Of a DNA stretch of 64,000 bases, positions 305 through 52,582 are shown in pieces (position 1 is the stretch's first letter; each line of letters begins with the position of its first letter). The translations under genes were made by a program, and so were the position numbers. This stretch comes from Nitrospiraceae bacterium (lineage in GTDB: Bacteria; Nitrospirota; Nitrospiria; Nitrospirales; Nitrospiraceae). The notes below the pieces were generated by a model. That model ran no database searches. It had not been told where the DNA came from and was given only the letters and a program-made list of their open reading frames with translations. Location: assembly GCA_037442105.1 (NCBI GenBank), contig JBBIQV010000001.1, forward strand, positions 62,001 through 126,000, given 5' to 3'.

Positions 305-371
305 TGAAAAATTCACAATGTAAAATAAACAGTTCCCGCCCTTTTGCTTTTTGAATTTTTCATTTTAAATT
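305..371. repeat. AT-rich heptad-repeat inverted-arm element, empty
   Basis: Arms tgaaaaa-ttcacaa-tgtaaaa and ttttgct-ttttgaa-tttttca-ttttaaa; contains stop codon of 365..1447. Confidence 0.65.
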
Positions 372-1447
372 CTCCCCGGTCGCCACCCCACCTGCGCCAG
401 AGTCTCTTTGACGTGATAGCGGACATTCTCGTCGCCTTCCCTCGCCAACAGGGGCAAGAGAACGGGGATGACGGCCGGCCCGAAACTGGTCAAGGCAACC
501 GCGGCATCGGCGCGAGTCACGGTGTCTTGCAATGCCGCGACCAACGTCGGGATGGCTGATTCGTCGCGAATAGTCCCTAACGCCCGCACTGCGGCACTCT
601 TCGTCACCATTTCTTCATCCCATCGATCCCCACAACCGGCAATGGGGCGACTCTCTACCGGGCGACACGCGCCTCTCGCGACTTCCACTAAAACCGGGAC
701 CGCCCTCCGATCCCCGATCCGTCCCAACGCATTGACAGCCAGCGGGCGCAATCCTGGCTCTTTCAGTACGGTAAACAGGAATTCCACCGCCCGCTCATCG
801 CCGATATCCCCCAACGCTCGAACCGCGTCCTCTCGCAACGCCGTATCCCGATCGTTGAATAACACAAAGAGCAATGGCTCAACGGCCTCCGGCGATTTTG
901 TTTTCCCCAGCGCCTCGATCGCGTGCAGGCGGACCAGCCATTCTTCATGCTTCAAGGCTTGGAGCAGCGAGGGAATGGCGGCCGCTCCAATAGCGGCCAG
1001 GGCGCCGGTCGCCTCGGCTCGGACGGCTTTGACCTTATCCTGTAGAAACGGAATCAATGCTTCGACTGCCGTGGCATCCTTGATTCGTCCCAATGCCTTG
1101 GCTGCGTGCATCCGCACAATCCAATCGGCGCTCCCCAGGGCTTTCAAGAGCGGGGCGACGACCCGCGCATCTCCGATGGAGGCCAAAATCGACGAGGCCG
1201 CCTCCTGAACCGAGAGCTGCGGATCGGATAAACACGCGCCTAAGACCTCCACCGACGGCTCGCCGATCGCGGTTAATGCGCCGATAGCCGCTTCACGGAC
1301 AGCCCGGTCCTCGTCTCGCAGCACAGCGACCAGCGGGATGACCGCGCGAGGATCTCTCAGGGTGCCCAACGCCAGGGCGGCGTCCTCACGAACCACCCAG
1401 TCTTCATCTTTCAGAGCGGCGATCTGTTCGGCCACCTGATCCGCCAT
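365..1447 (-). CDS. HEAT-repeat (PBS lyase) protein
   Basis: Repeated LxDxDxxVRxxAAxALGxIGDxRAVxPL units. Confidence 0.9.
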   Translation of the reverse strand: MADQVAEQIAALKDEDWVVREDAALALGTLRDPRAVIPLVAVLRDEDRAVREAAIGALTAIGEPSVEVLGACLSDPQLSVQEAASSILASIGDARVVAPLLKALGSADWIVRMHAAKALGRIKDATAVEALIPFLQDKVKAVRAEATGALAAIGAAAIPSLLQALKHEEWLVRLHAIEALGKTKSPEAVEPLLFVLFNDRDTALREDAVRALGDIGDERAVEFLFTVLKEPGLRPLAVNALGRIGDRRAVPVLVEVARGACRPVESRPIAGCGDRWDEEMVTKSAAVRALGTIRDESAIPTLVAALQDTVTRADAAVALTSFGPAVIPVLLPLLAREGDENVRYHVKETLAQVGWRPGRI

Positions 1448-1638
1448 CGCTCATCCTTCGTCCGAAAGGTATTAAAACTAACACAGGCATTTTCCCAGGG
1501 TCAACGGACGCCGGGGTTCGAATCCTTTTCGCACATATCCGCTCTTAGTCCCGTGAAACGGATAGACCCTAGCCCAAGTAGTCAAGAAGCGCGAGCAGGA
1601 AAAGGGCGCTCGCATCGGTCCCGTCTCGGTGACCCTGA

Positions 1639-1690
1639 TTGACACTCACCGAACCACTCTTTACCATGCAGAATATTCAGCAATGCATTG
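1639..1690 (+). promoter_or_regulatory. sigma70-type promoter with overlapping palindromes
   Basis: TTGACA(1639)-17 bp-TACCAT(1662); near-palindrome TGCAGAATATTCAGCA (1667-1682) and CAATGCATTG (1681-1690). Confidence 0.65.
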
Positions 1691-1768
1691 TGCGAATACC
1701 TATTCTTTCTTTACCGGGCCGTACCCAGGTGAAGCGCACTATTCCACTCCATTCAGAAGGAGGCTGCA

Positions 1769-3019
1769 ATGAACAGACTCAGACAGACATACGTCCGGAC
1801 ATGGCAATCGGCCGGGGCCTTGATGCTGGCCTTCCTGGCGGGTGTCCCGTCTCCCGCGTCCGCCTATGAAGTGTGGCTGACGGATCAGTCGGATACAGCG
1901 AAAGAGAGCGGCGGCTACTTGTACATCTATGATGGCGCCCAGCTTGCCGCCAATCCCTCCACCGCGAAGCCGACGGTCACGATCGATCTGGCCGGCGACA
2001 TCGGGAAGTTCTGCGAGGACGCCACGAAAAAAGCCGTGCGGCGCCCGCACATGCTGTTCTTCACGAAGGACCAGTCCCACGTCATCCTCTCCTTCCTGAG
2101 CGGACAGGTCCTCTTCATGGACGCAGCCACCAGGAAACCGGAGGCCTGCCTCTCCATGGGGAAGAACGTCCATGCGGCCTGGCCGACGCCGGACCAGAAA
2201 ATGGCGATCGCGGCCAACATCGCCGAAAAGAAATTCATCAGAATCTGGACAGACTATGCAGCGCATAAGTTCAGCTTCGATTCCGAGAAGGACGTGATGA
2301 GTCTCGCCGCCTTCGAAGGAGGAGAACGACCGGACACCGCCCCGATCTGCCCGATCACGGACGCCTCCAGCACGTACGCGTTCATCACCCTGCGCGGGGG
2401 CGGTCTGTTGGTGATCGACGTCACCACGACCCCGATGAAAACAGTCGCCAGCCTGGATAACGTGCAGATCCATCCAGCCGGTTGCGGTGGGATTCAGGTC
2501 GGGGACACCCTGTATATCAATTCCGGCGGCGGCTGGCCGGTTGCACCACTTTCCTATGACATCTACGCGCTCGACATCTCGAACCTGCCCAACAAGATCT
2601 CGGCCAGGCTCATCTCCCAACGGGATGAAAAGTTCGCCGACTCGCACGGTATGGCTGCCGTCGGACGGTACTTATGGAGCGCGGACCGCGCGGGAAACAA
2701 CGTCGAAGTGATTGACACGCTCTCAAACCTGAGCGTCAACTCCATCAACCTCGTCGGGTCGCATAGCGATGACCCTGCACCGGACCTCATGGATGTGTCG
2801 CCGGATGGAAACTATGTCTTTGTTGGATTGCGTGGACCGAACCCGCTCACGGGCAACGATAAGAATGTGAATAATGCGAAAGGTTCTACTCCCGGTGTCG
2901 GAGTGATCAAGGTGACGAACGGAGGGAAAAGCGGTGAGTTTGCCGGGAATGCCCGCATCACCAACATGAAGGACGGGAAGGAGACCGCCGACACCCACGG
3001 GATCGCGGTTCGAAAATAA
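1769..3019 (+). CDS. Exported YncE-like beta-propeller protein
   Basis: AGGAGG RBS, signal peptide ending ASA, propeller-blade motifs (SPDGNYVFV, VEVIDT). Confidence 0.75.
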   Translation: MNRLRQTYVRTWQSAGALMLAFLAGVPSPASAYEVWLTDQSDTAKESGGYLYIYDGAQLAANPSTAKPTVTIDLAGDIGKFCEDATKKAVRRPHMLFFTKDQSHVILSFLSGQVLFMDAATRKPEACLSMGKNVHAAWPTPDQKMAIAANIAEKKFIRIWTDYAAHKFSFDSEKDVMSLAAFEGGERPDTAPICPITDASSTYAFITLRGGGLLVIDVTTTPMKTVASLDNVQIHPAGCGGIQVGDTLYINSGGGWPVAPLSYDIYALDISNLPNKISARLISQRDEKFADSHGMAAVGRYLWSADRAGNNVEVIDTLSNLSVNSINLVGSHSDDPAPDLMDVSPDGNYVFVGLRGPNPLTGNDKNVNNAKGSTPGVGVIKVTNGGKSGEFAGNARITNMKDGKETADTHGIAVRK

Positions 3020-3061
3020 ACATTGCGGCAGGCTCAGGTTGTGAAGCTAACCCTATGCCCG

Positions 3062-4429: not shown

Positions 4430-4461
4430 AACGAACCTCAACGGTTTTCAACATCCTGCCG

Positions 4462-4911: not shown

Positions 4912-4917
4912 GAACGA

Positions 4918-7935: not shown

Positions 7936-8002
7936 GCCACGCCGCTTCCCATTTCCAACTCCATTGCGCTTCATGCTTTCTTTCAGGTAAGTAAGTCGCG
8001 TC

Positions 8003-12031: not shown

Positions 12032-12035
12032 GACC

Positions 12036-12124
12036 GTGATGCGTGATAAGTGATGGGTGATGGGTGTGGAGCGGACTCTTTCTAGTCTTTCAACTGTTCA
12101 CTCATCACCGATCACTCATCACTT
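12036..12124. repeat. Heptad-repeat inverted-arm element (GTGATNN), empty
   Basis: gtgatgc-gtgataa-gtgatgg-gtgatgg ... ttcactc-atcaccg-atcactc-atcactt; contains VOC stop codon. Confidence 0.8.
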
Positions 12125-12548
12125 CCCACTTGAGTTTGCTGATCGTCGGCTCGTACAGCGCCTGAATCACGTTGCCGTCCGGATCGGCAAAATAGAACGA
12201 GTAACTGCCATCGCGGTGGCGCTTCGGCGGTTTGACGATGGCGGCCCCGAACTGCGCTGCCCTCCGTTCGACGTGCCGGAACATCTCATCTACGGCTTCG
12301 GAGCTGTCGAGGATCACGCCGAAATGGTCCAGCAACTGGCCGCATGGCGGCTGATAGCTCGACAGCTCAGCCTGCGGAATCTGGTGCAACGCCAGATTGT
12401 CCGTGCCGGAGCTGAAATAGACATTGTCAGGGTCCGGTTCCCACACGGCTTTCATGCCTAGGAGCTGCTCGTAAAAGCCGCGCGAGCGCGGCAGGTTGGT
12501 GACGCGAAGAGCCAGATGGCGTAAGCCGCGATGGAGTGGCATCGTCAT
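12105..12548 (-). CDS. VOC/glyoxalase family protein
   Basis: GLRHLALRV, FYEQLLG, DHFG, YFADPDGNVIQ. Confidence 0.88.
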   Translation of the reverse strand: MTMPLHRGLRHLALRVTNLPRSRGFYEQLLGMKAVWEPDPDNVYFSSGTDNLALHQIPQAELSSYQPPCGQLLDHFGVILDSSEAVDEMFRHVERRAAQFGAAIVKPPKRHRDGSYSFYFADPDGNVIQALYEPTISKLKWEVMSDR

Positions 12549-12767: not shown

Positions 12768-13613
12768 ATGTCTCGACGTATCCTGTTGCTGCTATTCGGC
12801 GCCTCGTTCTTGTTCGATTCGTCCATGTCTTTTGCCGCCGGTCCGGAGAGCCGCACTTCCGTAGCCGGCACCGGGAAGGATGGTGCGCCGCTTGTACTGG
12901 TCCCAGCCGGCCCCTTTCCCATGGGCGTGCCACCGGGAGACCGCGACGGCGGGCGCGATGAGTACCCGCGTCACACGGTGGACCTGGATGCCTTTTACAT
13001 CGACAAGTACGAAATCACAAACGGCCGGTATCTCGACTTCGTCAAAGCCACAGGTCACCGCGTGCCCCAGAACCCGAAAAACCCGACACGCAATCTTTGG
13101 GAAGGAGACCGCATTTCTGAATCCCTCGCCGACCGACCGGTCGTGAACGTGGACTGGTTTGACGCCGACGCTTACTGTACATGGGCCGGCCGCCGCCTGC
13201 CGACTGAAGCCGAATGGGAAAAGGCGGCGCGGGGTACGGATGACCGGCGGTTTCCCTGGGGCAATGTCGAACCCACTGCGAAGCACCTCAACTACAATCA
13301 AAGATGGATCGGCGAAAAGACGCTGATGCCCGTGGGCAGCTATGAAGCCGGCAAGAGCCCCTACGGGGCCTACGACATGGCGGGCAATGTGTGGGAATGG
13401 GTCAACGATTGGTACGACGCGCGATACTACGAGAAGACCCCATCCGCCAATCCGAAAGGTCCGGAGAGCGGCACGAAGAAAGTCATCCGCGGCGCCGGGT
13501 GGCAGAACGAGACGCCCACAGTCCGCATCTTCACCCGCGTCGAAAGCGATCCGACGATCCGCAATGAGTCGACCGGCTTCAGATGCGCCGCCGATGCGGC
13601 AATGCAAAAGTAA
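12768..13613 (+). CDS. FGE-sulfatase (SUMF1/EgtB/PvdO) domain exported protein
   Basis: RLPTEAEWEKAARG, DMAGNVWEW, GFRCA; GGAGG RBS. Confidence 0.9.
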   Translation: MSRRILLLLFGASFLFDSSMSFAAGPESRTSVAGTGKDGAPLVLVPAGPFPMGVPPGDRDGGRDEYPRHTVDLDAFYIDKYEITNGRYLDFVKATGHRVPQNPKNPTRNLWEGDRISESLADRPVVNVDWFDADAYCTWAGRRLPTEAEWEKAARGTDDRRFPWGNVEPTAKHLNYNQRWIGEKTLMPVGSYEAGKSPYGAYDMAGNVWEWVNDWYDARYYEKTPSANPKGPESGTKKVIRGAGWQNETPTVRIFTRVESDPTIRNESTGFRCAADAAMQK

Positions 13614-13632
13614 AAATGCAAAATGAAAAATT
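13601..13632. repeat. Left heptad arm of four-helix-bundle cassette 1
   Basis: tgcaaaa-gtaaaaa-tgcaaaa-tgaaaaa; contains upstream TAA and the cassette ATG. Confidence 0.75.
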
Positions 13633-13996
13633 ACGGACGGCTCGCGATATCGTAGAGCGCACGTTTTCATTCGCCCTCGACATTGTCAAACTCTGCAAGC
13701 GATTAAACCAGAAACCTGGGGTCGAAAAAATCCTCTCGCTCCAGTTACTCCGCTCCGGCACTTCGATAGGGGCGAATGTCGAGGAGGCCCAGGCAGCCCA
13801 GAGCAAAGCTGACTTCGCCAGCAAAATGTCCATTGCTCTCAAGGAAGCACGCGAGACTCATTACTGGCTCCGGCTCATCAGAAACTCTGGTTCAGCGGAG
13901 ACCGAAACCTTCGCGAGTCTGATCAAGGAAGCCGGAGAACTCGGTAAAGTCCTGGGCGCGATCATCGCGCGATCCAAACAGATATCGCGGAACTAA
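13616..13996 (+). CDS. Four-helix-bundle protein (23S rRNA IVS protein/TIGR02436-like)
   Basis: QLLRSGTSIGANVEEA, SKADF, IALKEARETHYWL. Confidence 0.9.
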   Translation: MQNEKLRTARDIVERTFSFALDIVKLCKRLNQKPGVEKILSLQLLRSGTSIGANVEEAQAAQSKADFASKMSIALKEARETHYWLRLIRNSGSAETETFASLIKEAGELGKVLGAIIARSKQISRN

Positions 13997-13999
13997 CCC

Positions 14000-14030
14000 T
14001 TCTGCATTTTGCACTTTTAATTTTTCATTC
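14000..14030. repeat. Right heptad arm of four-helix-bundle cassette 1
   Basis: ttctgca-ttttgca-cttttaa-tttttca, complementary to left arm. Confidence 0.75.
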
Positions 14031-14035
14031 CTGCC

Positions 14036-16820: not shown

Positions 16821-17008
16821 TAGGAGCCTGTCCGACATTGCCGTTCGTGACGAGGCGAAGGAGATGCGGCCAGATGCAAGGCCGCAGGCCCGGAAAAACC
16901 GGAGGCGTATTCGCTGGAATACGTTGAGGATTTTTTCGGGCCGAGAACGACGCAGATGGGTGCAGATCGTTCGCCACAGTAGAAAGGTCAATGTCGGACA
17001 GGCTCCTA
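16821..17008. mobile_element. 188-bp MITE-like element, copy 1
   Basis: Perfect 20-bp terminal inverted repeats TAGGAGCCTGTCCGACATTG; second copy at 20909. Confidence 0.85.
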
Positions 17009-20830: not shown

Positions 20831-20908
20831 GGCTGCACCTCCTCTTCCTATCGGATGCTTATCAGACAGTCGGTCACACTGTCGACTCGTGAGTTCTGAG
20901 TCTTAGTC

Positions 20909-21096
20909 TAGGAGCCTGTCCGACATTGACCGTTCTACTGCGGCGAACGATCCGCGGCCATCTGCGTCGTTCTCGGCCCCGAAAAATCCTCAATGTATTC
21001 CAGCGAATACACCTCCGGTTTTTCGCGGCCTGCGGCCTCGCATCTGGCCCGCACCTCATTCGCCTCGTCACGAAGGCAATGTCGGACAGGCTCCCA
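20909..21096. mobile_element. 188-bp MITE-like element, copy 2, opposite orientation
   Basis: Same terminal repeats; interior is a diverged reverse complement of 16821..17008. Confidence 0.85.
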
Positions 21097-21340
21097 GAAG
21101 AAGCGTTTATGACGCACAAACTCGCAGCTCAAAACTTAACTGAATATTATAATACTGCTTATGACCGGTCGCAGCCCTGAAGAGGGACCGGCGCGGGTTC
21201 CCACCGGCTTGACAGGTTCCATCCGCCTTCTTAGACTCGTGGGCCTCCGTTCGGCAACCCGGTGAGTACGCCCGTCGCAACGGTGTACCGGGTTGACACG
21301 CTCATCTTCACGCTTCGCATTCAACCGCCGGGTTGGTCCC

Positions 21341-27040: not shown

Positions 27041-27063
27041 TTCCACTCCTCTTTTCGCAGATT

Positions 27064-27134
27064 CGTCAAGCGTCACTCGTCATCCGTCAACCGCTGGAGA
27101 TCTCGATTGACGAGTGACGGTTGACGACAGACGA
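27064..27134. repeat. Heptad-repeat inverted-arm element (CGTCANN), empty
   Basis: cgtcaag-cgtcact-cgtcatc-cgtcaac ... ttgacga-gtgacgg-ttgacga-cagacga. Confidence 0.8.
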
Positions 27135-27135
27135 C

Positions 27136-27754: not shown

Positions 27755-27816
27755 ATAGCCGGTAGCGAAGAGCGAGCAGCAAACAGCCGGCGTGAGCTGT
27801 GCGCTATTCGCTATCC
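27755..27816. repeat. Heptad-repeat inverted-arm element (TAGC/GCTA type), empty
   Basis: atagccg-gtagcga-agagcga-gcagcaa-acagccg ... gctgtgc-gctattc-gctatcc; contains adh stop codon. Confidence 0.7.
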
Positions 27817-30646: not shown

Positions 30647-31681
30647 ATGCGAGCGCTTGTTAAACTCGCCGCGCAACCGGGCCTGACCGAGACCGACTGG
30701 CCCGATCCTATTCCCGGCCCTTCCGACGTGGTCGTTCGCGTGAAGGCCACGTCACTCTGCGGCACCGACGCGCACATTTACAACTGGGACGAATGGGCGC
30801 ACAGCCGCGTGACGCCGCCACGGATCATCGGGCATGAACTGTGCGGCGAGGTGGTCGGGATCGGCTCCGAGGTCTCGCGGGCGAAGGTCGGCGACTACGT
30901 TGCCGCGGAGTCCCACATCACGTGCGGCCATTGTTTCCAATGCAGAACCGGACGAGCGCACGTCTGCAAAAGCTACCGGATTCTCGGCATCGATCGCGAT
31001 GGTTCCTGCGCCCAATACGTCGCGCTTCCTGAAAGCGTGCTCTGGAAGAGCTCGCCGGAGATTCCTCCGGAACTCGCCTGCGTGCAGGAACCGCTCGGCA
31101 ACGCTGTCGATGCCGCACTCGTGGAGGACCTGACCGCCCAGACGGTCCTGATTACCGGTTGCGGACCGGCGGGCCTCTTCGCGACAGCCGTGGCTCGCGT
31201 GGCCGGTGCCGCGACCATCATTGCATCCGACATCAGCGACTACCGGTTAGGACTTGCCAAACAGCTCGGCGCAGACCATATCGTGAATGCCAAGGCCGAC
31301 TCGTCCGAAGCGATCGCCGCCCTCATCCAGACCATCACGGAAGGGGAAGGCGTGGACGTCTCGCTGGAGATGTCCGGCGATCCCACAGCGCTGCATCAAG
31401 CCTTCCGCGCGGTAAAGAACGGCGGCCGCGTGACATTGTTCGGAATTCCCACCGAACAGGTCTGTTTCGATCTCACGAATGAGATTATCTTCAAAGGCAT
31501 CCGCGTGTACGGGGTGACGGGACGCCGGCTGTTTGGAACGTGGTATCGATTGGCCGGGCTCTTCAAGGCGGGCCTGAATATCCGGCCGGTCATCACCCAC
31601 ATGTTTCCGATGAGCGAGTTCGCCACGGGCTTCGAGCTCATCAAAACCGGCCAGTGCGGGAAAGTGGTGCTGTTCCCGTAG
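30647..31681 (+). CDS. tdh: L-threonine 3-dehydrogenase
   Basis: CGTDAHIYNWDEWA, GHE, EPLGNAV, LEMSG; adjacent to kbl; TGCTATAAT extended -10 at 30631. Confidence 0.93.
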   Translation: MRALVKLAAQPGLTETDWPDPIPGPSDVVVRVKATSLCGTDAHIYNWDEWAHSRVTPPRIIGHELCGEVVGIGSEVSRAKVGDYVAAESHITCGHCFQCRTGRAHVCKSYRILGIDRDGSCAQYVALPESVLWKSSPEIPPELACVQEPLGNAVDAALVEDLTAQTVLITGCGPAGLFATAVARVAGAATIIASDISDYRLGLAKQLGADHIVNAKADSSEAIAALIQTITEGEGVDVSLEMSGDPTALHQAFRAVKNGGRVTLFGIPTEQVCFDLTNEIIFKGIRVYGVTGRRLFGTWYRLAGLFKAGLNIRPVITHMFPMSEFATGFELIKTGQCGKVVLFP

Positions 31682-31757
31682 CGAGCGAGCAGCGAGCAGC
31701 CAGTCGCTCGGATAGATTCACTCCTGGCTATCTGCTATTCGCTATTAGCGACTCGCT
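31678..31757. repeat. Heptad-repeat inverted-arm element (TAGC/GCTA type), empty
   Basis: tagcga-gcgagca-gcgagca-gccagtc ... gctatct-gctattc-gctatta-gcgactc; begins at tdh stop. Confidence 0.75.
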
Positions 31758-34077: not shown

Positions 34078-34137
34078 TAGCGCACAGCCAATAGCCAGCA
34101 GCGAGTGGCTCGGAGCTATTCGCTATTAGCTATTCGC
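34078..34137. repeat. Heptad-repeat inverted-arm element (TAGC/GCTA type), empty
   Basis: tagcgca-cagccaa-tagccag-cagcgag ... gctattc-gctatta-gctattc; contains hydrolase stop codon. Confidence 0.78.
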
Positions 34138-34902
34138 TCCTTGGCGGCGGACAGCAGCCGCAATGAACTCGACCAGCTTTGCAAAGTACGCGCGCCCGCC
34201 CACGAAGGGGAGATTGTTATGGTCGGCGCCCCGGACCACATAGAACGACTTGGGTGGGAGCGCCGCTTCGAAGACCTGCTTGCCCAATTCGAGCGGGACG
34301 ATGTCGTCCTGATCGCCATGGACGAACAGTTTCGGAAGCGAGAGCTGGGGCAGACGATCAATCAACCGGTATTCCGCTCCAAGAAGCAAGTGTACGGGCA
34401 GACCGCCATAGTGGAACTTGGCCACGGACTCAATCGACGGGAAGCACGATTCCGGGATGAGCCCGGACGCTGGCTCCTGCGTGGCTACTTCACCCGCGAC
34501 CGCCGCGCCCAGCGAGCGCCCGAAGAGAATCAGGCGCTCGGGCCTGATGTGGCGGGTGCGCGTGAGATAGGCATAGGCGCCGAGAGCATCCTCGTACAGG
34601 CCCTGCTCGGACGGCCGTCCCTGGCTCCGGCCATAGCCACGGTAGTCAAACAGGAAGACCGACAATCCGTTCCGGTAGAGCTCACGAAGATTCTCCAGCC
34701 GGTTGATGATATTCCCGGCGTTGCCGTGGCACCAGAGCAACACCGCCGAGGTGGCCGACGCTTCCACGTACCAGCCGAAGAGCTTCGTCCCGCCGGCAGA
34801 TTGAAACCAAACATCCTCCAGCGGCAGGCCGCTAATCCTGGCCCAGTCCCGATCCTGCCAGGAAGCCGGATGATAGACGAAGAATTGGTCGAGAAGACTC
34901 AC
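34126..34902 (-). CDS. Alpha/beta hydrolase (ABHD-like)
   Basis: HGNAGN, DYRGYG, GRSLG, HGDQD, ADHN. Confidence 0.9.
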   Translation of the reverse strand: MSLLDQFFVYHPASWQDRDWARISGLPLEDVWFQSAGGTKLFGWYVEASATSAVLLWCHGNAGNIINRLENLRELYRNGLSVFLFDYRGYGRSQGRPSEQGLYEDALGAYAYLTRTRHIRPERLILFGRSLGAAVAGEVATQEPASGLIPESCFPSIESVAKFHYGGLPVHLLLGAEYRLIDRLPQLSLPKLFVHGDQDDIVPLELGKQVFEAALPPKSFYVVRGADHNNLPFVGGRAYFAKLVEFIAAAVRRQGANS

Positions 34903-34914: not shown

Positions 34915-35041
34915 GTGAATGGCGAGTAGCGAACAGCGAGTAGCAGCCACCCCCACCCTTCCCTCCCCCTTGTAAAGGGGGAGGGATTGAGGGAGGGGGC
35001 CTGTCCGTGGGCTGTTGGCTATTTGCTATCGGCTACTCGCT
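34915..35041. repeat. Heptad-repeat element with a REP-like palindrome in its loop
   Basis: gcgagta-gcgaaca-gcgagta ... gctgttg-gctattt-gctatcg-gctactc; loop holds ccctcccccttgtaaagggggaggg. Confidence 0.75.
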
Positions 35042-40456: not shown

Positions 40457-41737
40457 CTACTGCCCTGCTACCGTCACTTGTATTTTGCCCCTGTTGCCTA
40501 TTTGCTCAAGCGGAGGCTGGAGAAGGGGGGTCTGATCGCGATTGAGTTCTTCTGATGCGACCGAAACGACACCATTCCGTACATACTGAAACAATTCCGC
40601 GACCTCCACAGTGCCACTTTTGTCGCTATCCGCCTCCCCTCGCAGCCCCTTCAACACGTAGTAAGTAAAGAGACCATGTTGCTCCTTGTCGTAATCGGAA
40701 CTGATCTGTGTGCCGGTAGCGGCGGCGAGAATGGCAAGCTTTCCAGATGCCAGCACTGGATTCTCAATCGCAATACCCACCGGTCGAGCGCCTGATGGAA
40801 GCACTGATCTTCCGGAAGCCCCGGAAAAGCATGAATCGAGCATCACAACCACTTCCTTGGCCGGCAACCGTTCGAGATTCTCATACAGCCGATCAAGAGG
40901 ATAGAGTTTGTTTTGAAAATCGGGGTGGCCATCGTAGGGGAGGAGAAACGCTTTGCCTGTGGCCGGGTTCGGGGTTCCATGCCCCGCGTAATAGACAACC
41001 ACCGTCGTGTCCTTTGACACTCTGCGAGGCAGCCATTCTTCGACATAGGCTGAGAGATCGCTATGTGTCGCCCCCTCATCTGTGAGGACCTTTATTCTCG
41101 ATCGAGCAATACCGCTTATTGATTCCAAGTAAGCAGCCATGATTTCGGCATCACGTTTCGCATACCGCACCTGTGGGATTGCCTCGTCCCGATACTTTGA
41201 GATGCCGATGACAAGCGCAACCGCGTCCCGACTCTTGTCCAACTTCCTTGATTGTGGAATCGCATCCACATCACTGAGTTTTTTTGGAGTTTCCCGTAAC
41301 GCTTGCCTCTCGCCACCGCGACGTGAAGCGACGACCGTTTCTTTCTCCTCTGCAAATGGAGCGAGGGAGTAAAAGTACACAGGATCCAATCGATATGTCA
41401 GTCGCATAGAATCCCACTGGCGCGTGATGACCCTGATCACCGGTTCATACCCTTCCTTCCTTATCTCGATGGTGAAGGTCTTTTGTGAACCGGACGGATC
41501 ATGAAACGTGACAGGGCTGAGTCCGAGTTCTCGGCCATCCAGAAGAACCTTGGCACCGGATGGATCAGTCTTCACTACAACCTGTACAGAAGGGTCGCCG
41601 TGAACGATCGACATCGGCCCTCCCCCTATCCCGGACCCACATCCACCGACCAAGAGACCGGTGATGCCGAAGAGCATTGCGCGCACCCAGGTTGCAAGGG
41701 ACGAGATAGGCGTACATACCAAGCCTCTATTCGACAT
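40457..41737 (-). CDS. PEGA + caspase-family (peptidase C14) lipoprotein (start uncertain)
   Basis: LVGGC lipobox, TDPSGAKVLLDG PEGA, ALVIGISKY, YAGHG, LDSCFSG. Confidence 0.88.
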   Translation of the reverse strand: MSNRGLVCTPISSLATWVRAMLFGITGLLVGGCGSGIGGGPMSIVHGDPSVQVVVKTDPSGAKVLLDGRELGLSPVTFHDPSGSQKTFTIEIRKEGYEPVIRVITRQWDSMRLTYRLDPVYFYSLAPFAEEKETVVASRRGGERQALRETPKKLSDVDAIPQSRKLDKSRDAVALVIGISKYRDEAIPQVRYAKRDAEIMAAYLESISGIARSRIKVLTDEGATHSDLSAYVEEWLPRRVSKDTTVVVYYAGHGTPNPATGKAFLLPYDGHPDFQNKLYPLDRLYENLERLPAKEVVVMLDSCFSGASGRSVLPSGARPVGIAIENPVLASGKLAILAAATGTQISSDYDKEQHGLFTYYVLKGLRGEADSDKSGTVEVAELFQYVRNGVVSVASEELNRDQTPLLQPPLEQIGNRGKIQVTVAGQ

Positions 41738-41939
41738 TGCGTGTACCTTGTAGTACAAACCAGTGCTACCGGCGACTTTGCTCAAGCGAAGCTGGAAATC
41801 CAGCCGAACGATCCCCGATAGAGCCATTGGAAAAACTTCATCATCCCGTGGAAGATTCCTAGAGTCCCCTGTCTAACATCAGCCGCGATACTGTGCGAGT
41901 TCAACACTTTTGTCAAGGTGTTAAAATCTACTGCAATGT

Positions 41940-42299
41940 CTACTTTCTCACTTCATACAGAACAGTCATCTCGGCCCACTCCGCTTCATCCAGGAGAGAA
42001 AGCTCCTTGAGGAGGTCGGTAACCAGGGCCGTATCCTTTCCTGCATAGACTTGGTATACCCCCTCGCGGACTTTGCCTTTCATCAGATCAATCTGTTTCG
42101 TCGTCGCAATGACTTTGATCTTCTCCACGGCTTTCCTTTCGCCTTGGGGAGGGAAGACCCGGAGTCGAATCCCCATCGCCCTTTGCGAGTCATCAGGAAA
42201 GATCAATTCTTGCTCAGCCCGGACAGCATTGCTCGATGTGAACCGATTCGGGAGCAGCACGGTGACCGCATCATCTTGTCCGATGTTGAAGATATGCAA
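41940..42299 (-). pseudogene. 5'-truncated DUF4384 domain, diverged duplicate of the 3' end of 44430..45713
   Basis: LHIFNIGQDDAVTVLLPNRF identical to paralog; no RBS or ATG. Confidence 0.75.
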
Positions 42300-42379
42300 G
42301 AGACAGGGTCGGGTCTTGCCATCGCACAGTGGGGGAACGATCTGCGCCGGAAATGATTCCCGACCCTATTGCTCCGACG

Positions 42380-43825
42380 CTAGCGAGTTGCCCGTTCGAG
42401 GAGCCGCACCGTCTTGGCCACGACCGGATCGCCCAAGAGTTGCGGCGTCTGCTCCTGGTGCAGCTCCTTGCGCGCCGTCTGCTCGACCTGCGGCCGGACG
42501 TAGCGGTACAGTTCCTCCAAGCCGATCATCCCGTCCCGATCCTGGTCCGCCTCGCCCTTGAGCCCCTTGAGGAGAAAATAGGTGAGGAGCCCGTGCCCTT
42601 GCGAAAGGATCGTGCCGGAGACCTGGGTGCCGGTGCTCGCCGTCAACGCTACGACCTTTCCACCGGCCAGAAGAGAGTGTTCCGGGACCAGAACCACCGG
42701 CCGCATGCCTGGGGCCAACACCGAACGGCCGCCCGCTCCGGAAAAACAGGCATCCAGCACCACAATGACTTCCTTGGCCGGCAACTTCGCCAGATGCCCA
42801 TACAACCGTGTCACCGGGTACCCCGTCGCCTCGATGAAGGCCGGATCGCCGTCGTAGGGAACCAGGTACGGCTCGCCGGTCTTGGGATTCGGCGCGCCGT
42901 GGCCGGAGAAATAGACCAGCACCGTATCGTCCGGCCCCACGCGATCCGGCAGCCAGTGCTCGACATACTTCTCGAGGTCCGCCTTGGCGGCCCGGTCGTC
43001 CCGCAGCACCGCCACCTGGTGCGCCGGATAGCCCATCGCCCGGAGCAGATAGGTCTCCACCGTCTCGGCATCGCGGGCGGCGAACTCGGCGGGCGGCAGG
43101 GCATTCCGGTACCGTTCGATCCCCACAACCACCGCATGGGCCTTGGGCTGAGGCGACGGCGTCCCGGTCGGCGGAACATCCACCGCACTGCGTGGAGGAG
43201 CAGGCCTGGTCGGAGCGGCCACGGACGGCAGACGTGGAGGCGCCGATGGTCCCGCCAGCGCCGCCTCCAGCATCTGCACGATCGAGGCGCGCCCCTGACG
43301 GCGCGCCACATCGAGGGGGGTCTCGCCGGTCCGGTCTTTCACGCCTACATAGGCATCATGGGCGAGCAAGAGCGCAATGATTCCGGCATGGCCCTGCTCT
43401 GCGGCCAAGTGCAGCGGCGTACGCTGGTCTTGATTCCGTGCCGCCACATGCGCGCCCTTCTCCAGCAGGAGCCGCGCCACGACTTCGTGGCCCTTCCAGG
43501 CAGCCCCGTGCAGGGGCGTCACCCCATCTTTCGTAGCCGCGTTGACATGCGCCCCCTTTTCCAGCAGGAGCCGCGCCACGGCTTCGTGGCCTTCAAGGGC
43601 AGCCCCGTACAGGGGCGTCCACCCATCTTCCGTAGCCGCGTTGACGGTCGCCCCTTGCTTGAGGAGCGTCTCCATCTGCGCAAGGTTGCCCTCGCGAGCC
43701 GCTTGGAGAAGCTGCTCGTCCTGTGGAGCGAGGCCCGTGAGCACTCCCCATGTGGCAATCAAGCCGATGCTCGCCAGCCACTTGGCTCGTAGTTTCCATC
43801 TTGCGGTGCATATCGTCGTCTGCAT
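42380..43825 (-). CDS. Ankyrin-repeat + caspase-family (peptidase C14) exported protein
   Basis: TPLH/TPLY ankyrin repeats, AVVVGIERY, FSGHG, LDACFSG; GGGAGGG RBS. Confidence 0.9.
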   Translation of the reverse strand: MQTTICTARWKLRAKWLASIGLIATWGVLTGLAPQDEQLLQAAREGNLAQMETLLKQGATVNAATEDGWTPLYGAALEGHEAVARLLLEKGAHVNAATKDGVTPLHGAAWKGHEVVARLLLEKGAHVAARNQDQRTPLHLAAEQGHAGIIALLLAHDAYVGVKDRTGETPLDVARRQGRASIVQMLEAALAGPSAPPRLPSVAAPTRPAPPRSAVDVPPTGTPSPQPKAHAVVVGIERYRNALPPAEFAARDAETVETYLLRAMGYPAHQVAVLRDDRAAKADLEKYVEHWLPDRVGPDDTVLVYFSGHGAPNPKTGEPYLVPYDGDPAFIEATGYPVTRLYGHLAKLPAKEVIVVLDACFSGAGGRSVLAPGMRPVVLVPEHSLLAGGKVVALTASTGTQVSGTILSQGHGLLTYFLLKGLKGEADQDRDGMIGLEELYRYVRPQVEQTARKELHQEQTPQLLGDPVVAKTVRLLERATR

Positions 43826-43863
43826 GATGGCGCCCTCCCCGTCGACTGCTCAATTAGAAAACG

Positions 43864-43943
43864 AAAAAGGGGTCGGTCGACGAAAAAGGGGTCGGGAGTC
43901 TTAATTGCCACAGCGCCGTCTAGAAAAGACTCCCGACCCCTTT
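43864..43943. repeat. REP-like inverted repeat
   Basis: aaaggggtcgggagtctt ... aagactcccgaccccttt, with a partial tandem copy of the left arm. Confidence 0.75.
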
Positions 43944-44116
43944 CTCTCTTCTGAACCTCCTCTCTGTGGTGGGTACACAGCACGCCTCCATGACGTGACG
44001 TTATCCTCCACGTGAGGAGCCTTCGAGATGATTATCAGGAGTCATTGTTTTGGCCTTGCGAAGCGACTGCTGTTGCGTGACTCGGCTCTCGTCCCTACGC
44101 TCCGATCGGAGAAATG

Positions 44117-44256
44117 AGGGGCAGAGTGCAATTTCCGAGCGCAATTTCTTTTGGCCGAGGCAGACGCGTCATGGTCGCGAGACCGTGCAACCCAATAAGG
44201 TACGCAACCTACATTATTGCTGACCTTACTGTCGGTGAAATTGTTCTCTGACCCTA
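44117..44256. repeat. REP doublet-like inverted repeat
   Basis: aggggcagagtgcaatttc ... gaaattgttctctgacccta. Confidence 0.6.
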
Positions 44257-44407
44257 ACCCGCATTATTCATGAGCGCTTCTGCTGTAACCGCGCATTCGC
44301 TGCTGCGACAAGCCTTCGGCGGGCAGGCTCGCGACGCGACTGCGCCTGCCTGTGCGGACACGCAGACAGGCGATTTCGCGACGAACCGTCATGAATAATG
44401 CGGGCTA
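44255..44407. mobile_element. About 150-bp MITE-like element with nested palindromes
   Basis: Terminal repeats TAACCCGCATTATTCATGA / TCATGAATAATGCGGGCTA; internal cctgcctgtgcggacacgcagacagg. Confidence 0.75.
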
Positions 44408-44429
44408 ATATCATCTTCGACACTCCCGT

Positions 44430-45713
44430 CTATCTTCTCACTTCGTATGGAACGGTGACCTCCGCCCATTCCGACTCATCCAGATGGGCCAGCTCCCTCA
44501 GCAGATCGGTGATGAGGGCGGTATCTTTCCCCGTGTAGACTTGATACACCCCTTCCTGGATCTTGCCTTTCATGAACTCTATCGGCTTCGTCGTCGCAAT
44601 GAGCTTCATTTTTTCCACGGCCTTTTGGGTGCCCGCTGGGGGAAAGACCCGCAGCCGAATGCCCAGGCTGCGTTGCTCTTCGTCCGGGAAGACAAGTTCC
44701 TGGTGAGCACGCAGCACGTTGCGGTGGACGAAGCGATTCGGCAGCAGGACAGTGACGGCATCATCTTGTCCAATGTTGAAGATGTGCAGATACGCATCCC
44801 TCGTGGCAACCGCCCGGATCTGCATCTCCTCCCCTTCACTGAACACCGTCTTATTGAGGTCCGCCTTGACGGCAAAGTCACCTCGCCGTTCTATTCGCAC
44901 CGGCTTCACTTTGGCTTTGAGCTTGGTGGCATAGAGCAGCGCGGGGGCTCCTGTCTCCTGACCAAGCTGGCGCACCCCCTCTTCTAGGATCTGTTCTTCC
45001 ACGACGATGCCCCGAACCAGAGAGTGGACGAGATCCTCGGCCACTTGCGCGTTATACACCACCCTTTGACCTTTCACGAACACTCCCACAGCTTGCTCGA
45101 TAGCCTTCCGCCGAGCTTCATCCCGCGCACGGGTCTTGGCTTCCGCCAAGGTCGTATCTGGTCCGAACGGAGCCACTCCTTCGCTCGTCACCCAGACCGG
45201 TTCCTTCCTCTCCAGTTGCTCTTGAAGCCCGGATTCCTCCGGCGTTGTCGCGCTCTCTGAGAAACGGAGAATCCGCGCCACCTCTGATCGGGGTACTACC
45301 GCCACGGCATAGGCGTGTCCGGTCGAAGGGTCCTTGCCCCGGTCAACAATCTCGACGCCCTGTACGAGTTCTTCAACCCGGCTTTCAAGGACACGGGACA
45401 CTTCTTGCTCCGCATGGCCCCCGCGCTCGCGGAGCAGATCGGTCCACACAACCTTCACGGCCACTCTCGCCTGTTTCAGAAGATCGGCACGGGCCAGTTC
45501 CGTTGCTGCCGTATCCGACTCTGCCTCCCCCATCCCTACGAGGAACTGGTTACTTGGATACTGCTGGGAGACCTTCGCGAATCTGGAATGATCTCGTTCC
45601 TTTGAAGCAGGGGGAGATGAGAGCTGGGACTCTGGCGTGGTTGGCGGCGTAGCGCAAGCGACGAGAATTCCGATGGCGACACATCCGATGATGGCAGCAC
45701 TCGCTCGCATCAT
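44430..45713 (-). CDS. Lipoprotein with LPP20-like, FlgT-N-like and DUF4384 domains
   Basis: Lipobox LVAC; ARRKAIEQAVGV; YLHIFNI...VTVLLPN. Confidence 0.8.
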   Translation of the reverse strand: MMRASAAIIGCVAIGILVACATPPTTPESQLSSPPASKERDHSRFAKVSQQYPSNQFLVGMGEAESDTAATELARADLLKQARVAVKVVWTDLLRERGGHAEQEVSRVLESRVEELVQGVEIVDRGKDPSTGHAYAVAVVPRSEVARILRFSESATTPEESGLQEQLERKEPVWVTSEGVAPFGPDTTLAEAKTRARDEARRKAIEQAVGVFVKGQRVVYNAQVAEDLVHSLVRGIVVEEQILEEGVRQLGQETGAPALLYATKLKAKVKPVRIERRGDFAVKADLNKTVFSEGEEMQIRAVATRDAYLHIFNIGQDDAVTVLLPNRFVHRNVLRAHQELVFPDEEQRSLGIRLRVFPPAGTQKAVEKMKLIATTKPIEFMKGKIQEGVYQVYTGKDTALITDLLRELAHLDESEWAEVTVPYEVRR

Positions 45714-48110: not shown

Positions 48111-48140
48111 TAGCCGCATTCGTTGGTGTTTCTTCACCGC

Positions 48141-48169
48141 TTGACGTTATCGAACTAGTTGATTAAGCT
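48141..48169 (+). promoter_or_regulatory. TA operon sigma70 promoter
   Basis: TTGACG-17 bp-TAAGCT with palindrome AACTAGTT in the spacer. Confidence 0.55.
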
Positions 48170-48198
48170 GGTTGAATAATTCTGAGCGTGGAGGCCCC

Positions 48199-48869: not shown

Positions 48870-48902
48870 CGGCGTCTCTCCCATTGAATTTTGACCAGAG
48901 TC

Positions 48903-49400: not shown

Positions 49401-49612
49401 GGGGCGCTGGCCGAGCCGGCTTTGCGCAGCTCAGTGGCGAACCGTTGAAGATTGCGCAACTTCAGGAATCGCTGCTCGACCGTCAATTTCAAGTTTTCTC
49501 GGAGCAACGTCCGGTCGAGATCCCGTTTGTACGCTTCAACTACCGGGTCCGGCTGGAGTCTTGTGGCGCTCTTGTGCTCGCTAGATTCCTCATGGCTGGT
49601 TTTTATCGTCAT
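49397..49612 (-). CDS. Small partner protein of the nucleotidyltransferase
   Basis: DRTLLRENLKLTVEQR; ATGA overlap with next gene. Confidence 0.7.
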   Translation of the reverse strand: MTIKTSHEESSEHKSATRLQPDPVVEAYKRDLDRTLLRENLKLTVEQRFLKLRNLQRFATELRKAGSASAP

Positions 49613-49633
49613 GTTCGGCCCGCTCCGAAAAGT

Positions 49634-50227
49634 TTAGCACTTTCTTCCGCGCTGCTTCAACGCGGGCTTGCTTTCAACACCTTTATGCCCTCTCGCACGT
49701 GGATGCTCAGCCGCGCGGGTCGCAAATTGACCGGACATGGTTTGCCCTGCCTGGTCGGCCAACGCGACGAGGCGAGCCTCAAGCGTGCCATTGGTGATGG
49801 TGACAATACCGATTCCTCGCGGCAGCGTAAATCGTTTCGGTCCCGCCGATCCGGGATTGAACAGCAGCGTCTTGCCGAACCATTCGACTCTGGGCTGATG
49901 CGTGTGGCCGAAGATGCAGATGTCGGGCTGCTCCCGTTCCAGAAACAGGCGGCCTTCTTTGGTCATCTTCCTGCCTTCATAGAGGATGTGACGGATGGCG
50001 ATCCGTCGGCCGGCCAGCTCGATCAGCGTCTCCGGCGGAACACCGCTGCGCCCATATTCGTCCACATTCCCCGACACAGCGGTGACCGGCGCGATGGTTT
50101 CGAGTTGCGTGATGACCGACCGGTCCCCGATGTCGCCCGCATGGACGATATGATCGACTCCGCGAAAGAGTCGGATGATCGCCCGATCGAACAGCCCATG
50201 CGTATCCGCAATTACGCCGATGCGCAT
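49634..50227 (-). CDS. YfcE-family metallophosphoesterase
   Basis: ADTHG, HAGD, GNVD, GHTH, NPGS. Confidence 0.92.
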   Translation of the reverse strand: MRIGVIADTHGLFDRAIIRLFRGVDHIVHAGDIGDRSVITQLETIAPVTAVSGNVDEYGRSGVPPETLIELAGRRIAIRHILYEGRKMTKEGRLFLEREQPDICIFGHTHQPRVEWFGKTLLFNPGSAGPKRFTLPRGIGIVTITNGTLEARLVALADQAGQTMSGQFATRAAEHPRARGHKGVESKPALKQRGRKC

Positions 50228-50230
50228 GCG

Positions 50231-51379
50231 TCACTCTGCCTTTGCCGCCGGAAGCTGGGCCGCCCCGAGGGATTCGTGAATCTTCTGCCAATCGAATGTG
50301 AAGGGCTCTGGTGCTTGTTTCGACAGTGCGGCGGCTTCGGCTTTCAACCGCGCCGCCCGCCCGGCGCTCATCGGGTGGGTGGAGAGCCATTCCACACGCC
50401 CCCCCTCCTGCTCGGAAAGCCGTTCAAAGAACCGGATCATCCCGTCGGGCGGAATTTTGGCGCGATGGAGCAGCTTGAGGCCTTCGACGTCGGCTTCCGT
50501 TTCCTGCTCCCGACCGAACTTCAACGTGAGCAGTTCGACACCCAATTCCTTCGCCAAGCCGATTAATCCCTGTTGATCCCCGATGAGGATCGTCACCACT
50601 GCAACGAGACCGAGCGTTTTCATGATCCGCTCCAGCCCGTGGCGTTTCAGCACATGGTTCAGCTCATGTCCTAACACACCGGCTACCTCTTCCGGACCTT
50701 CCGCTTTCGTCAGCAGCCCCGTGAAGACGACCACATACCCGCCCGGCAAGGCAAAGGCATTCACGACGTCGCTCTTGACCACGGTGACATGGAACTTGTA
50801 GGGCTTGTCCTGAAGACGGTCCGTCAGCCGGCTCGTGATCTCTTGCACAGCGGTGACGGCGGGTCCCTCATGAATGACCGTCTGCCCCGCAAGGAATTCT
50901 TTCTCAGCCGATTCCCCGATCTTCTGCTCCCACTCGACGGGAATCCGGGCGACGGCCATTTCTACCAACGTGTCCGACCCGAACCACAACGCCAGCAGCA
51001 ATCCCGCCAGCACCCCGCCTGTGACCAGCAGGGCAGTCCGTCGCCGGTGCCGCACACGCCGGACTTGCTCGACCGTATGCTCCAGTGGTTTCGTCAGTTC
51101 TGGAGGCGCGGCCTGTCGAAAGGCACGAATGAGTCCGGACTCCCTGAGATAGAGCGTGCGTTCCGACCTGTCGGCGACCCACTTCACCACAAGCTGATCA
51201 TGGTCGAATCCGCCGGCTGAGACCGTGAGCGAGGAGAAGGATACGGACTCCACCTTGTCTTCATCGGACGCGCCGACGAAGCGGATGGCCAGACCTGTGG
51301 CCGTGACTTCAACGAAGCAGGGCGCTCCCGTTGCAGGAAACTCCTGGCCGAAACAAAGGGCGTTGGGGATCGACGTCAT
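50231..51379 (-). CDS. M48 family metallopeptidase
   Basis: VNAFALPGG, HELNH, ETEAD, STHP. Confidence 0.9.
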   Translation of the reverse strand: MTSIPNALCFGQEFPATGAPCFVEVTATGLAIRFVGASDEDKVESVSFSSLTVSAGGFDHDQLVVKWVADRSERTLYLRESGLIRAFRQAAPPELTKPLEHTVEQVRRVRHRRRTALLVTGGVLAGLLLALWFGSDTLVEMAVARIPVEWEQKIGESAEKEFLAGQTVIHEGPAVTAVQEITSRLTDRLQDKPYKFHVTVVKSDVVNAFALPGGYVVVFTGLLTKAEGPEEVAGVLGHELNHVLKRHGLERIMKTLGLVAVVTILIGDQQGLIGLAKELGVELLTLKFGREQETEADVEGLKLLHRAKIPPDGMIRFFERLSEQEGGRVEWLSTHPMSAGRAARLKAEAAALSKQAPEPFTFDWQKIHESLGAAQLPAAKAE

Positions 51380-51398
51380 CGTAACGTGACGTGAGTAA

Positions 51399-52082
51399 TC
51401 ACTCGGACACCGGAATGAACTGTCTGATCCAGTTGCCGAATCCGCCGGGATTCCGGGTTTGGATGTAGACAACTCCTGGTCCCCGGAACCGGCAGACGAA
51501 TCCTTCGCCGGAGGTGAAGCTGGCCACCCAGCCGGACGCCGCTTTCTCGATGTTGTAACTGGTGGTGGCACTCCAGGCGACGAGATGGCTGTTATCGACG
51601 ATGTATTCCTGATCCGGCTTCAAGTCGATCTTGTGAATGGCGCCGAAGCTGTTCAAGATCAGCGGACCGGTCCCGCCGATCTTCAGAATAAAGAAGCCTT
51701 CGCCGCCTAACAGCCCCCGGCTCAGGCTCTGCATGCGGCTCTCGATCTTCACGGACTCGGCGCCCGCCAGAAAACCGTCCTTCTGGACCATGTATTCGTT
51801 CACGCCGTCGAGCTCCATAATCACAATTTCACCAGGCACGGTCGGCGCTAACAAGACTTCACCCGGCCCACGGCTGGCCCGCAGCGTCTGAAAGAAAAAC
51901 TTTTCGCCCGTGAGCAACTTGCGCGACAATGCCCCGAGAAAGCCGCCCTCCATCTTGCTCTCGACATCGATGGTTGGTGATGCCCCGACCATTGCGCCGG
52001 ACTCCGCCTTGATGGTCTCTCCCGCCGTCAACTCCACCCGCACCATCGGAAACGCCCCCGGATAGAGAATTTCAGATTTCAT
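51399..52082 (-). CDS. AIM24/TIGR00266 family protein
   Basis: AESGAMV, GEKFF, GGEGFF, SGEGFVCRFRGPG, QTRN. Confidence 0.9.
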   Translation of the reverse strand: MKSEILYPGAFPMVRVELTAGETIKAESGAMVGASPTIDVESKMEGGFLGALSRKLLTGEKFFFQTLRASRGPGEVLLAPTVPGEIVIMELDGVNEYMVQKDGFLAGAESVKIESRMQSLSRGLLGGEGFFILKIGGTGPLILNSFGAIHKIDLKPDQEYIVDNSHLVAWSATTSYNIEKAASGWVASFTSGEGFVCRFRGPGVVYIQTRNPGGFGNWIRQFIPVSE

Positions 52083-52100
52083 GCATCGATCCTCCCGATT

Positions 52101-52130
52101 CGTAAGGGGTTAGGCGTGAGGCGTCAGGCG
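52101..52130. repeat. Heptad arm of four-helix-bundle cassette 2 (3' side)
   Basis: cgtaagg-ggttagg-cgtgagg-cgtcagg-cg. Confidence 0.78.
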
Positions 52131-52157
52131 CAAAATACGCCCAGCCAAGATCCACCA

Positions 52158-52529
52158 TTAGCGCTTGCCGCCGTTAGCCTTCTGATGACGAATGAGCCCG
52201 CCAAGCATCTTGTCAATTCGCTCAACTTGCTGATCAAAGATCAGCCAATTGTCGTGCCCAAGGTACCCAAGCCTTTTTGCAAGTTCGAGTTGAGTATCTA
52301 ATTCGCTCAGCGACCCTTGCGCCATGTGCAGGTAGTTGATGAATTCTTTTCGAGTTTGACGACCTGCTCCCTCGGCGACATTGCTCGGCACACTCACAGC
52401 AGCCCTTCGGATTTGGTCGGTGAGACTATACCGTTCGTCCTTGGGAAAGTCTTCTGTAGCTCGGTAAATATTAGCCGCCAGTTCCATAGCTGTATTCCAT
52501 AGGTCTAGTTTTTTATGCGGCTTGTCCAT
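52158..52529 (-). CDS. Four-helix-bundle protein (23S rRNA IVS protein/TIGR02436-like)
   Basis: FPKDERYSLTDQIRRAAVSVPSNVAEG, AQGSLSELDTQL. Confidence 0.92.
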   Translation of the reverse strand: MDKPHKKLDLWNTAMELAANIYRATEDFPKDERYSLTDQIRRAAVSVPSNVAEGAGRQTRKEFINYLHMAQGSLSELDTQLELAKRLGYLGHDNWLIFDQQVERIDKMLGGLIRHQKANGGKR

Positions 52530-52552
52530 GTCTTGGCCGCTTTCTGAAATAT

Positions 52553-52582
52553 CGCCTCACACCTTACGCCTCACGCCTCACG
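52553..52582. repeat. Heptad arm of four-helix-bundle cassette 2 (5' side)
   Basis: cg-cctcaca-ccttacg-cctcacg-cctcacg, complementary to 52101..52130. Confidence 0.78.

Follow-up and report, generated by a model that had tools for sequence, protein, structure and literature searches.

The 64-kb window analysed here (G000:C1:62001–126000, from a Nitrospiraceae genome, G000, whose assembly spans 2.81 Mb at 87% completeness) carries ten elements built from two inverted arrays of 7-nt units, and in two of these the arms enclose a gene for a four-helix-bundle protein of the S23p/PF05635 family. The system to which they belong is real and widespread and, as a system, has apparently not been published. 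It behaves as an open reading frame (ORF)-bearing intervening sequence (IVS) of 23S rRNA generalised to operon junctions, accompanied by a large gene-less population; the cassette is not a 23S IVS by location, nor is it a diversity-generating retroelement (DGR) or a classical miniature inverted-repeat transposable element (MITE). With a probability of roughly 55%, we read the gene-bearing form as an insertion cassette without a transposase, in which a pentameric protein would read up to five units and a host enzyme would do the moving, the gene-less 'empty' elements being further members of the same family.

Heptad-armed elements in the window and the genome

Ten such elements had been proposed from the sequence in an earlier reading of this window (the original prediction), and inverted arms with a period of 7 are indeed present at every one of them. 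They are listed here with the strand for the two cassettes.

302–366 (arms 302–325 and 342–366): empty element, AAAATG class, at the stop of a HEAT-repeat gene (365–1447, minus strand)
12035–12131 (arms 12035–12066 and 12098–12131): empty element, GTGAT class; the same-genus genome G001 has another class at this site
13596–13631, plus strand: 5′ arm of cassette 1, AAAATG class, overlapping both the stop of the FGE-sulfatase gene (13613) and the probable start of gene 1
13616–13996, plus strand: four-helix-bundle gene 1 (PF05635, TIGR02436); gene-call start 13616, longest ORF from 13583
14000–14034, plus strand: 3′ arm of cassette 1, ending just 5′ of hemD (14036)
27063–27135: empty element, GTCA class; class identical in G001, loop and unit order different
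27755–27814: empty element, TAGC class, right arm short; G001 has an 8-nt-period element in the same gap
31678–31757: empty element, TAGC class, at the tdh-kbl junction, beginning at the tdh stop codon
32970–33035: empty element, GTGAT/GTGA-type units, at the convergent kbl-mlaA junction
34078–34138: empty element, TAGC class, overlapping a hydrolase stop; absent in G001
34922–35040: empty element, TAGC class, its loop holding an unrelated hairpin; absent in G001
52101–52130, minus strand: 3′ arm of cassette 2, GTGAGG class, upstream of the AIM24 gene
52158–52529, minus strand: four-helix-bundle gene 2 (PF05635, E 7e-39); predicted model matches XCC0516 and Avd
52553–52582, minus strand: 5′ arm of cassette 2, 4 nt past the amidohydrolase stop

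Both enclosed ORFs are, as had been claimed, four-helix-bundle genes lying between arms; they pass the PF05635 and TIGR02436 cut-offs, and in predicted folds the arms of each cassette pair with one another, looping the ORF out. The claim that architecture is kept without sequence is supported; the units are not free at each site and fall instead into about nine classes. Likewise, the period of 7 is kept at all ten sites, with 8- and 9-nt versions occurring in relatives. Nesting is seen in the 34915 element (34922–35040 above), where the unrelated GC-rich 26-bp hairpin in the loop, at 34946–35000, belongs to a repetitive extragenic palindrome (REP)-like family. An Rfam scan of the window returned no match.

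The genome-wide scan for 7-nt periodicity that the prediction had called for shows a clear excess over controls. At a score of at least 12, G000 holds 179 period-7 tracts, against 1–26 for periods 4–6 and 8–12, and 214 of the 323 tracts scoring at least 10 are matched by an inverted partner no more than 1.2 kb away, mostly within 60 nt, compared with 21 of 323 random genomic places. After merging, 171 paired-arm calls were obtained, some overlapping and 14 flagged as in-gene by the gene caller; the counts that follow concern their short-loop intergenic subset. Arm order is the same in 133 of 134 short-loop elements, which thus have a fixed polarity. By class, 133 elements divide into TCAGC (37), TAGC (35), GTGAT (18), AAAATG (15), GTCA (11), AGGC (9), AGTT (4), CCGT (3) and GTGAGG (1), and within each class a few core positions are 98–100% fixed, the others being nearly free. 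Across the stem, pairing at free positions exceeds chance only modestly, 545 of 2863 stem pairs are mismatched, and an invariant A is carried on both strands of the arms. The number of consecutive core units per arm peaks at four and is capped near five (1:16, 2:28, 3:70, 4:95, 5:47, 6:3, 7:4). Recent slippage was rejected as the source of these arrays because adjacent units are no likelier to be identical than random draws from their class (TCAGC 11 of 183, 10.8 expected; TAGC 10 of 209, 19.7 expected).

Of 129 elements, 84 begin no more than 20 nt from a stop codon, a zone that takes in 11% of intergenic bases, and their host operons are housekeeping ones, tuf-rpsJ, nuo, trp, pdh and che among them. 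None lies inside any of the 27 tRNA/tmRNA genes of G000; two tRNA genes have an element within 100 nt. Of 134 loops, 60 contain a TCNGA/TCSGG/CCSGA motif where 28 would be expected, and the motif often caps the arms on their inner side; in the shortest TAGC elements the centre is just five bases long. Entire arms are essentially never common to two elements, and among 90 loops there are few matching pairs, mostly passengers of another MITE, the only setting in which copy-paste spread of empties was seen. Loops compared with cassette interiors gave no match past hits of 10–14 nt and arm-like sequence. The window itself contains, at 44255–44407, one member of a MITE family whose ends are of the CATTATTCATGA type; further copies in G000 have a TAGC heptad hairpin mid-element, two of them identical over 131 nt, and one adjoins a Y1 (RAYT-like) transposase at G000:C8:20357. 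A heptad tract is present at one of the three Y1 loci of G000, sitting inside another MITE.

The enclosed gene, its relatives and their junctions

G000 has five PF05635 genes, four between arms and the fifth between two whole empties, and 106 of the 133 empties belong to the arm classes of these genes. All five lie between protein genes and none in an rRNA helix; the 23S rRNA gene, which may itself hold an IVS, is not in the assembly. The genes are under purifying selection, with dN/dS of ~0.05–0.2 in unsaturated pairs. The closest named relative of gene 2 comes from a Nitrospirales genome, and the predicted structure of the gene 2 product (pLDDT 95) matches XCC0516 and BT_0352, both five-chain entries, first and Avd next. 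Agreement with the pentameric XCC0516 is at 47–50% identity and TM 0.82–0.86, and with Avd (4DWL, 8UB7) at Z 14.8–15.2 and rmsd 1.6–2.6 over 106–113 residues, with ~10% identity. The relation to Avd that had been claimed is thus borne out by the fold; the Avd family cut-offs were failed (NF033474, 43.8 against 80 bits; PF22296, 32.6 against 40). By homology, the window proteins are probably pentameric. A reverse transcriptase (RT) was found neither among the scanned window ORFs nor among 98 neighbours of homologues, and the sole RT match in G000 (L197, G000:C14:86–3358) is a broken gene; its RT-like sequence is divided between two ORFs next to the specificity gene of a type I restriction system, and the surrounding restriction-modification locus has no heptads. 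GxxExxY (PF13366) had no match in the G000 assembly, at its 87% completeness. Viral contigs, searched with a single-protein query, and a phage collection (E ≤ 1e-8) yielded no relative of the four-helix protein; 35 plasmid records, mostly cyanobacterial, contain one, and an Atlas search returned PF05635 clusters only.

Heptad arms accompany these genes far beyond G000. PF05635 matches occur in 164 of 201 genomes of the host family, with 0–12 per genome, and by eye arms are present at nearly all of 31 loci, some with 8-nt, 9-nt or mixed periods. Among the best 80 of at least 599 confirmed loci, taken as a cross-phylum sample, 57 pass a strict two-arm test (49 with period 7, 6 with period 8 and 2 with period 9), compared with 1 of 419 shifted controls, which confirms the expected enrichment around four-helix-bundle genes; several of the failing loci look like genes with a complete hairpin on each side. 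The median distance between upstream stop and 5′ arm is 1 nt (52 loci), an invariant G is found in 94 of 98 arms, 63 of the 98 have 4–5 units, and at 12 of 57 loci the four-helix protein terminates inside its own 3′ arm. Unit class tracks protein clade on a quick tree, which has many open forks and was used for this concordance only. The genes flanking elements and homologues have no function in common.

Some individual loci stand out. At L091–L095, L108 and L111 an 8-nt 3′ arm seems to extend into the first hemD codons. L118, labelled Chitinophagaceae, falls in the trxB-thiI clade of the host family and shares that clade's flanks and arms, suggesting transfer or mis-binning. Cyanobacterial plasmid homologues have heptad arms on both sides in four of six cases; L268, L267 and L269, which have such arms, lie between cas6 and cas4 or after tyrosine integrase genes. 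In Lysobacteraceae, GGGA-class inverted arms bracket homologues upstream of accC; the neighbouring genes are presumably accC and carB, named partly from their N-termini and partly from the neighbour scan.

Comparison of orthologous junctions across 30 genomes, which the prediction had expected to reveal loaded, empty and absent states, did so at FGE-hemD and amidohydrolase-AIM24; tdh-kbl is loaded in 0 of 30. At FGE-hemD, 13 genomes are loaded (four with 7-nt arms, and nine in which the arms are 8-nt and the protein is of another clade), 10 have a gap of at most 17 nt and 7 are intermediate, one of these (L105) being a paired 8-nt empty. At amidohydrolase-AIM24, three are loaded, L085 is empty with the same arms, L076 is empty with another class and two have single arms; the rest are without heptads or not syntenic. 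Scored by eye, tdh-kbl holds an intact element in 17 genomes (eight classes in all), a decayed or half element in 7, none or another repeat in 4 and an unclear case in 2, and four genomes of one genus have four classes. In the same-genus G001, six of nine comparable window sites are occupied, only one by the same class, and three are without an element; relatives, at ~78% nucleotide identity, are too diverged to define pre-insertion sites.

At four of six loci that are loaded in relatives and unloaded in G000, the G000 junction holds an empty, whose class by eye mostly differs from that of the relative; with 129 of 2699 junctions as the background this gives p 7e-5, one locus of doubtful orthology having been dropped. 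Elements also nest: G028 has an 8-nt element within a 7-nt element, in G081 arms enclose a MITE, and copies of that MITE in turn contain arms. Junctions are hot spots that are re-occupied repeatedly, and since unrelated cassettes and classes are found at one junction, insertion or replacement is indicated, not drift. The proposal that empties are gene-less derivatives holds at the level of the family; if it is taken to mean that a cassette collapsed on the spot, it suits just a few sites (L085, L105), because re-used junctions mostly differ in class from the loaded relative and tdh-kbl is never loaded.

Empties also follow the gene across genomes. Among 120 relatives of 90% completeness or more, the median number of TCAGC matches is 10 in the 12 genomes with the TCAGC-armed clade (A3) and 1 in the others (p 2e-4; 0.008 when stratified by genus), and a GTGAY match is present in 9 of 13 carriers of the GTGAT-armed clade (A4) against 20 of 107 (p 2.5e-5). 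In a joint fit each clade predicted its own class only (A3: TCAGC t 3.05, GTGAY t −0.63; A4: GTGAY t 2.87, TCAGC t −0.47). The 22 genomes without a PF05635 match have almost no such empties, and 18 of them have zero TCAGC matches. In Lysobacteraceae, with genera not separated and G269 unscored and left out, there are 133 GGGA-class matches in 35 gene-bearing genomes against 12 in 35 gene-free ones, and 21 of 35 against 8 of 35 genomes have a match (p 0.003).

Readings of the system

Fixed cores amid free bases, kept in orthologous loaded arms at dS 0.5–0.85 as the free positions drift, imply a reader, and given the cap near five units and a pentamer gene between the arms, the product of the enclosed gene is the best candidate for it. 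In the cassette reading that we favour, the full unit would consist of two arrays of ~4–5 degenerate 7-nt (sometimes 8- or 9-nt) units, facing inward on either side of a small gene that encodes an Avd-like homopentamer, with one unit class per protein clade. The pentamer would bind an arm through its few invariant bases, roughly one unit per subunit, and together with a host enzyme would promote insertion or replacement of arm pairs, through a DNA or RNA intermediate, at permissive sites just past stop codons or inside existing hairpin loops. By looping the insert out of the transcript, the stem would make it tolerable to the operon. Most empties would be gene-less members served in trans, a few having arisen by local collapse or riding in another MITE, and the ORF-bearing 23S IVS would be the same unit landed in an rRNA helix.

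A bolder version, in which PF05635 pentamers act as sequence-specific readers and, with a borrowed host polymerase or nuclease, write or move arm pairs of up to five units into hairpins and junctions at stop codons, following a protein-to-heptamer code, is put forward only tentatively. If true, it would describe a new class of mobile element without its own transposase and related to the DGR Avd subunit, from which much of the heptamer excess in bacteria and the ORF-bearing rRNA IVSs would stem. The system as a whole would join three loose ends, namely heptamer over-representation, where ORF-bearing rRNA IVSs come from, and what S23p/PF05635 does, which has stayed obscure although two five-chain structures are solved. 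The predictions are that five subunits read up to five units and that each clade prefers its own unit, and the Xanthomonas 'G-quadruplex' repeats would be recast as one class among many.

Several observations weigh against the cassette reading. The fold search gave no catalytic match for the four-helix protein, and among the matches listed by a wide search with the model, none to a nuclease or HEPN protein rose above generic helical bundles; nor was a transposase, RT or nuclease present in the 98 neighbours scanned (145 picked), which are ordinary operon genes or unassigned. Unlike copy-paste elements, empties almost never have loops or arms in common. The cap near five units could arise from the instability of long palindromes, and 20 of the 98 cross-phylum arms are longer than five. 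The association of A4 with GTGAY is gone after genus stratification (p 0.43), 14 of the 35 gene-bearing Lysobacteraceae have no GGGA-class match, and G001 and several other genomes have 20–46 TCAGC matches without the cognate gene. Most protein clades are confined to one or few conserved loci, so the clade-class association is partly co-descent; with non-independent kin, overlapping matches and these gene-less carriers, the link between gene and empties is a correlation.

The placement of elements beside stop codons and the persistence of the genes at fixed loci under purifying selection would also suit an RNA regulon serving the host, in which the pentamer binds heptad stems at mRNA junctions and affects processing, stability or RNase III access, its own arms provide autoregulation, and gain and loss reflect ordinary gene flow. 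Purine-purine mismatches are weakly favoured on the sense strand (50 against 27 elements, p 0.012), and the available text of PMC4990558 places a Coxiella RNase III site at the first heptamer. We nevertheless judge such a regulon unlikely, as G-U pairs are not in excess over A-C on the transcribed strand (127 against 116), the sense strand has no clear advantage in folding energy (61 of 106, p 0.10), classes switch within a genus at sites that are often absent, and the flanking genes lack a common function. Unrelated loops, unshared arms, units resembling independent draws, fixed polarity and class replacement would all be accounted for by de novo writing, with an Avd-like pentamer and a host polymerase or RT adding error-prone units to each end of a break or nick; in the available text of bioRxiv 10.1101/2023.10.23.563531, Avd is described as an obligate partner of the RT. 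That account seems quite improbable to us, since the only RT match in G000 is the broken gene described above, no template was found, the invariant A on both strands is unlike DGR mutagenesis, and the drift of orthologous arms at free positions means that selection and time can give the same pattern.

An origin independent of the protein, with arms made by slippage, fold-back or a ride on another MITE and the gene a passenger surviving where the stem loops it out, has slightly lower odds still. It draws on the TAGC empties inside another MITE, with their identical 131-nt copies and the one beside a Y1 transposase, and on the many empties kept in genomes without a cognate gene; yet the slippage signature is absent, empties are nearly absent in two families where the gene is not found, position-specific invariance implies a reader, and MITE passengers make up only about ten sites, counted by eye. 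Very improbable are G-quadruplex elements, as proposed for GGGAATC repeats. The 5′ arms are G-rich, and position, four-unit mode and inverted pairing are the same in Xanthomonas (available text of PMC4692102), yet the TCAGC, TAGC, AAAATG and GTCA classes share the whole architecture without G-runs, which contradicts quadruplexes as a general account.

Known systems and neighbouring features

The empty form and 23S IVSs have each already been published; a literature search, with most subscription journals outside its coverage, found no paper linking heptamer empties to a 23S-type IVS gene. In the available text of PMC4990558, the IVS in helix 45 of Coxiella burnetii 23S rRNA contains S23p inside terminal inverted repeats, with 2–3 tandem GACAGAT heptamers and a degenerate fourth upstream of S23p, RNase III cutting at the first; the heptamers are treated there as a local feature. 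The G000 cassettes resemble it in encoding a PF05635/S23p protein between terminal inverted repeats and differ in lying at mRNA junctions and in having more than 100 gene-less copies per genome.

The GGGAATC repeats of Xanthomonas are described, in the available text of Rehm et al. 2015 (PMC4692102), as intergenic, with a four-unit mode, 70–75 inverted pairs and the G-rich strand by the stop codon; they are interpreted as G-quadruplexes, and the introduction calls bacterial heptamer over-representation uncharacterised. The supplement of that paper, as available, places repeat 15, of four units, six bases past bccP and overlapping the XCC0516 start, so that the crystallised pentamer itself abuts a published heptamer repeat; XCC0516 is not mentioned in the main text of PMC4692102. 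Empties of G000 are likewise intergenic heptad arrays of about four units in inverted pairs beside stops, but their class profiles lack the four G-runs that a quadruplex needs, and neither the link to a gene cassette nor classes other than G-quadruplex ones are described for GGGAATC repeats in the available text of PMC4692102.

The homology of PF05635 and Avd was pointed out in a DGR survey (PMC10053308), and the Avd pentamer contacts an RNA stem-loop with all five protomers (available text of bioRxiv 10.1101/2023.10.23.563531). The window protein shares with this stem-loop-binding pentamer a four-helix fold in the model, and differs in its ~10% identity, its score below the Avd model cut-off and the lack of an RT beside the gene. 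REP/REPIN-RAYT systems and MITEs comprise many imperfect intergenic palindromes past stop codons, in coding and gene-less forms. G000 elements are similarly abundant imperfect palindromes just past stop codons, but the enclosed gene is no transposase, copies have no common internal sequence and the arms are periodic arrays. Cyanobacterial short tandemly repeated repetitive sequences (STRRs) are intergenic heptamer arrays described as direct repeats without a cassette. The same description is given in the available text of PMC4679880 for the TAACTGA repeats of Beggiatoaceae, intergenic heptamer arrays of 2–6 copies; 'helix bundle' is not mentioned in that text.

Other features of the window lie apart from the heptad elements. 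Two copies of another inverted-repeat element, with ends TAGGAGCCTGTCCGACATTG, are found at 16821–17008 and 20897–21103, the latter with a lone 7-nt arm (TGAGTTC-type) just outside it, near 20890. A GC-rich hairpin at 43882–43946 belongs to a REP-like family distinct from the heptad elements, and 40457–45713 is a gene cluster with caspase-domain (PEGA, ankyrin) and DUF4384 genes.

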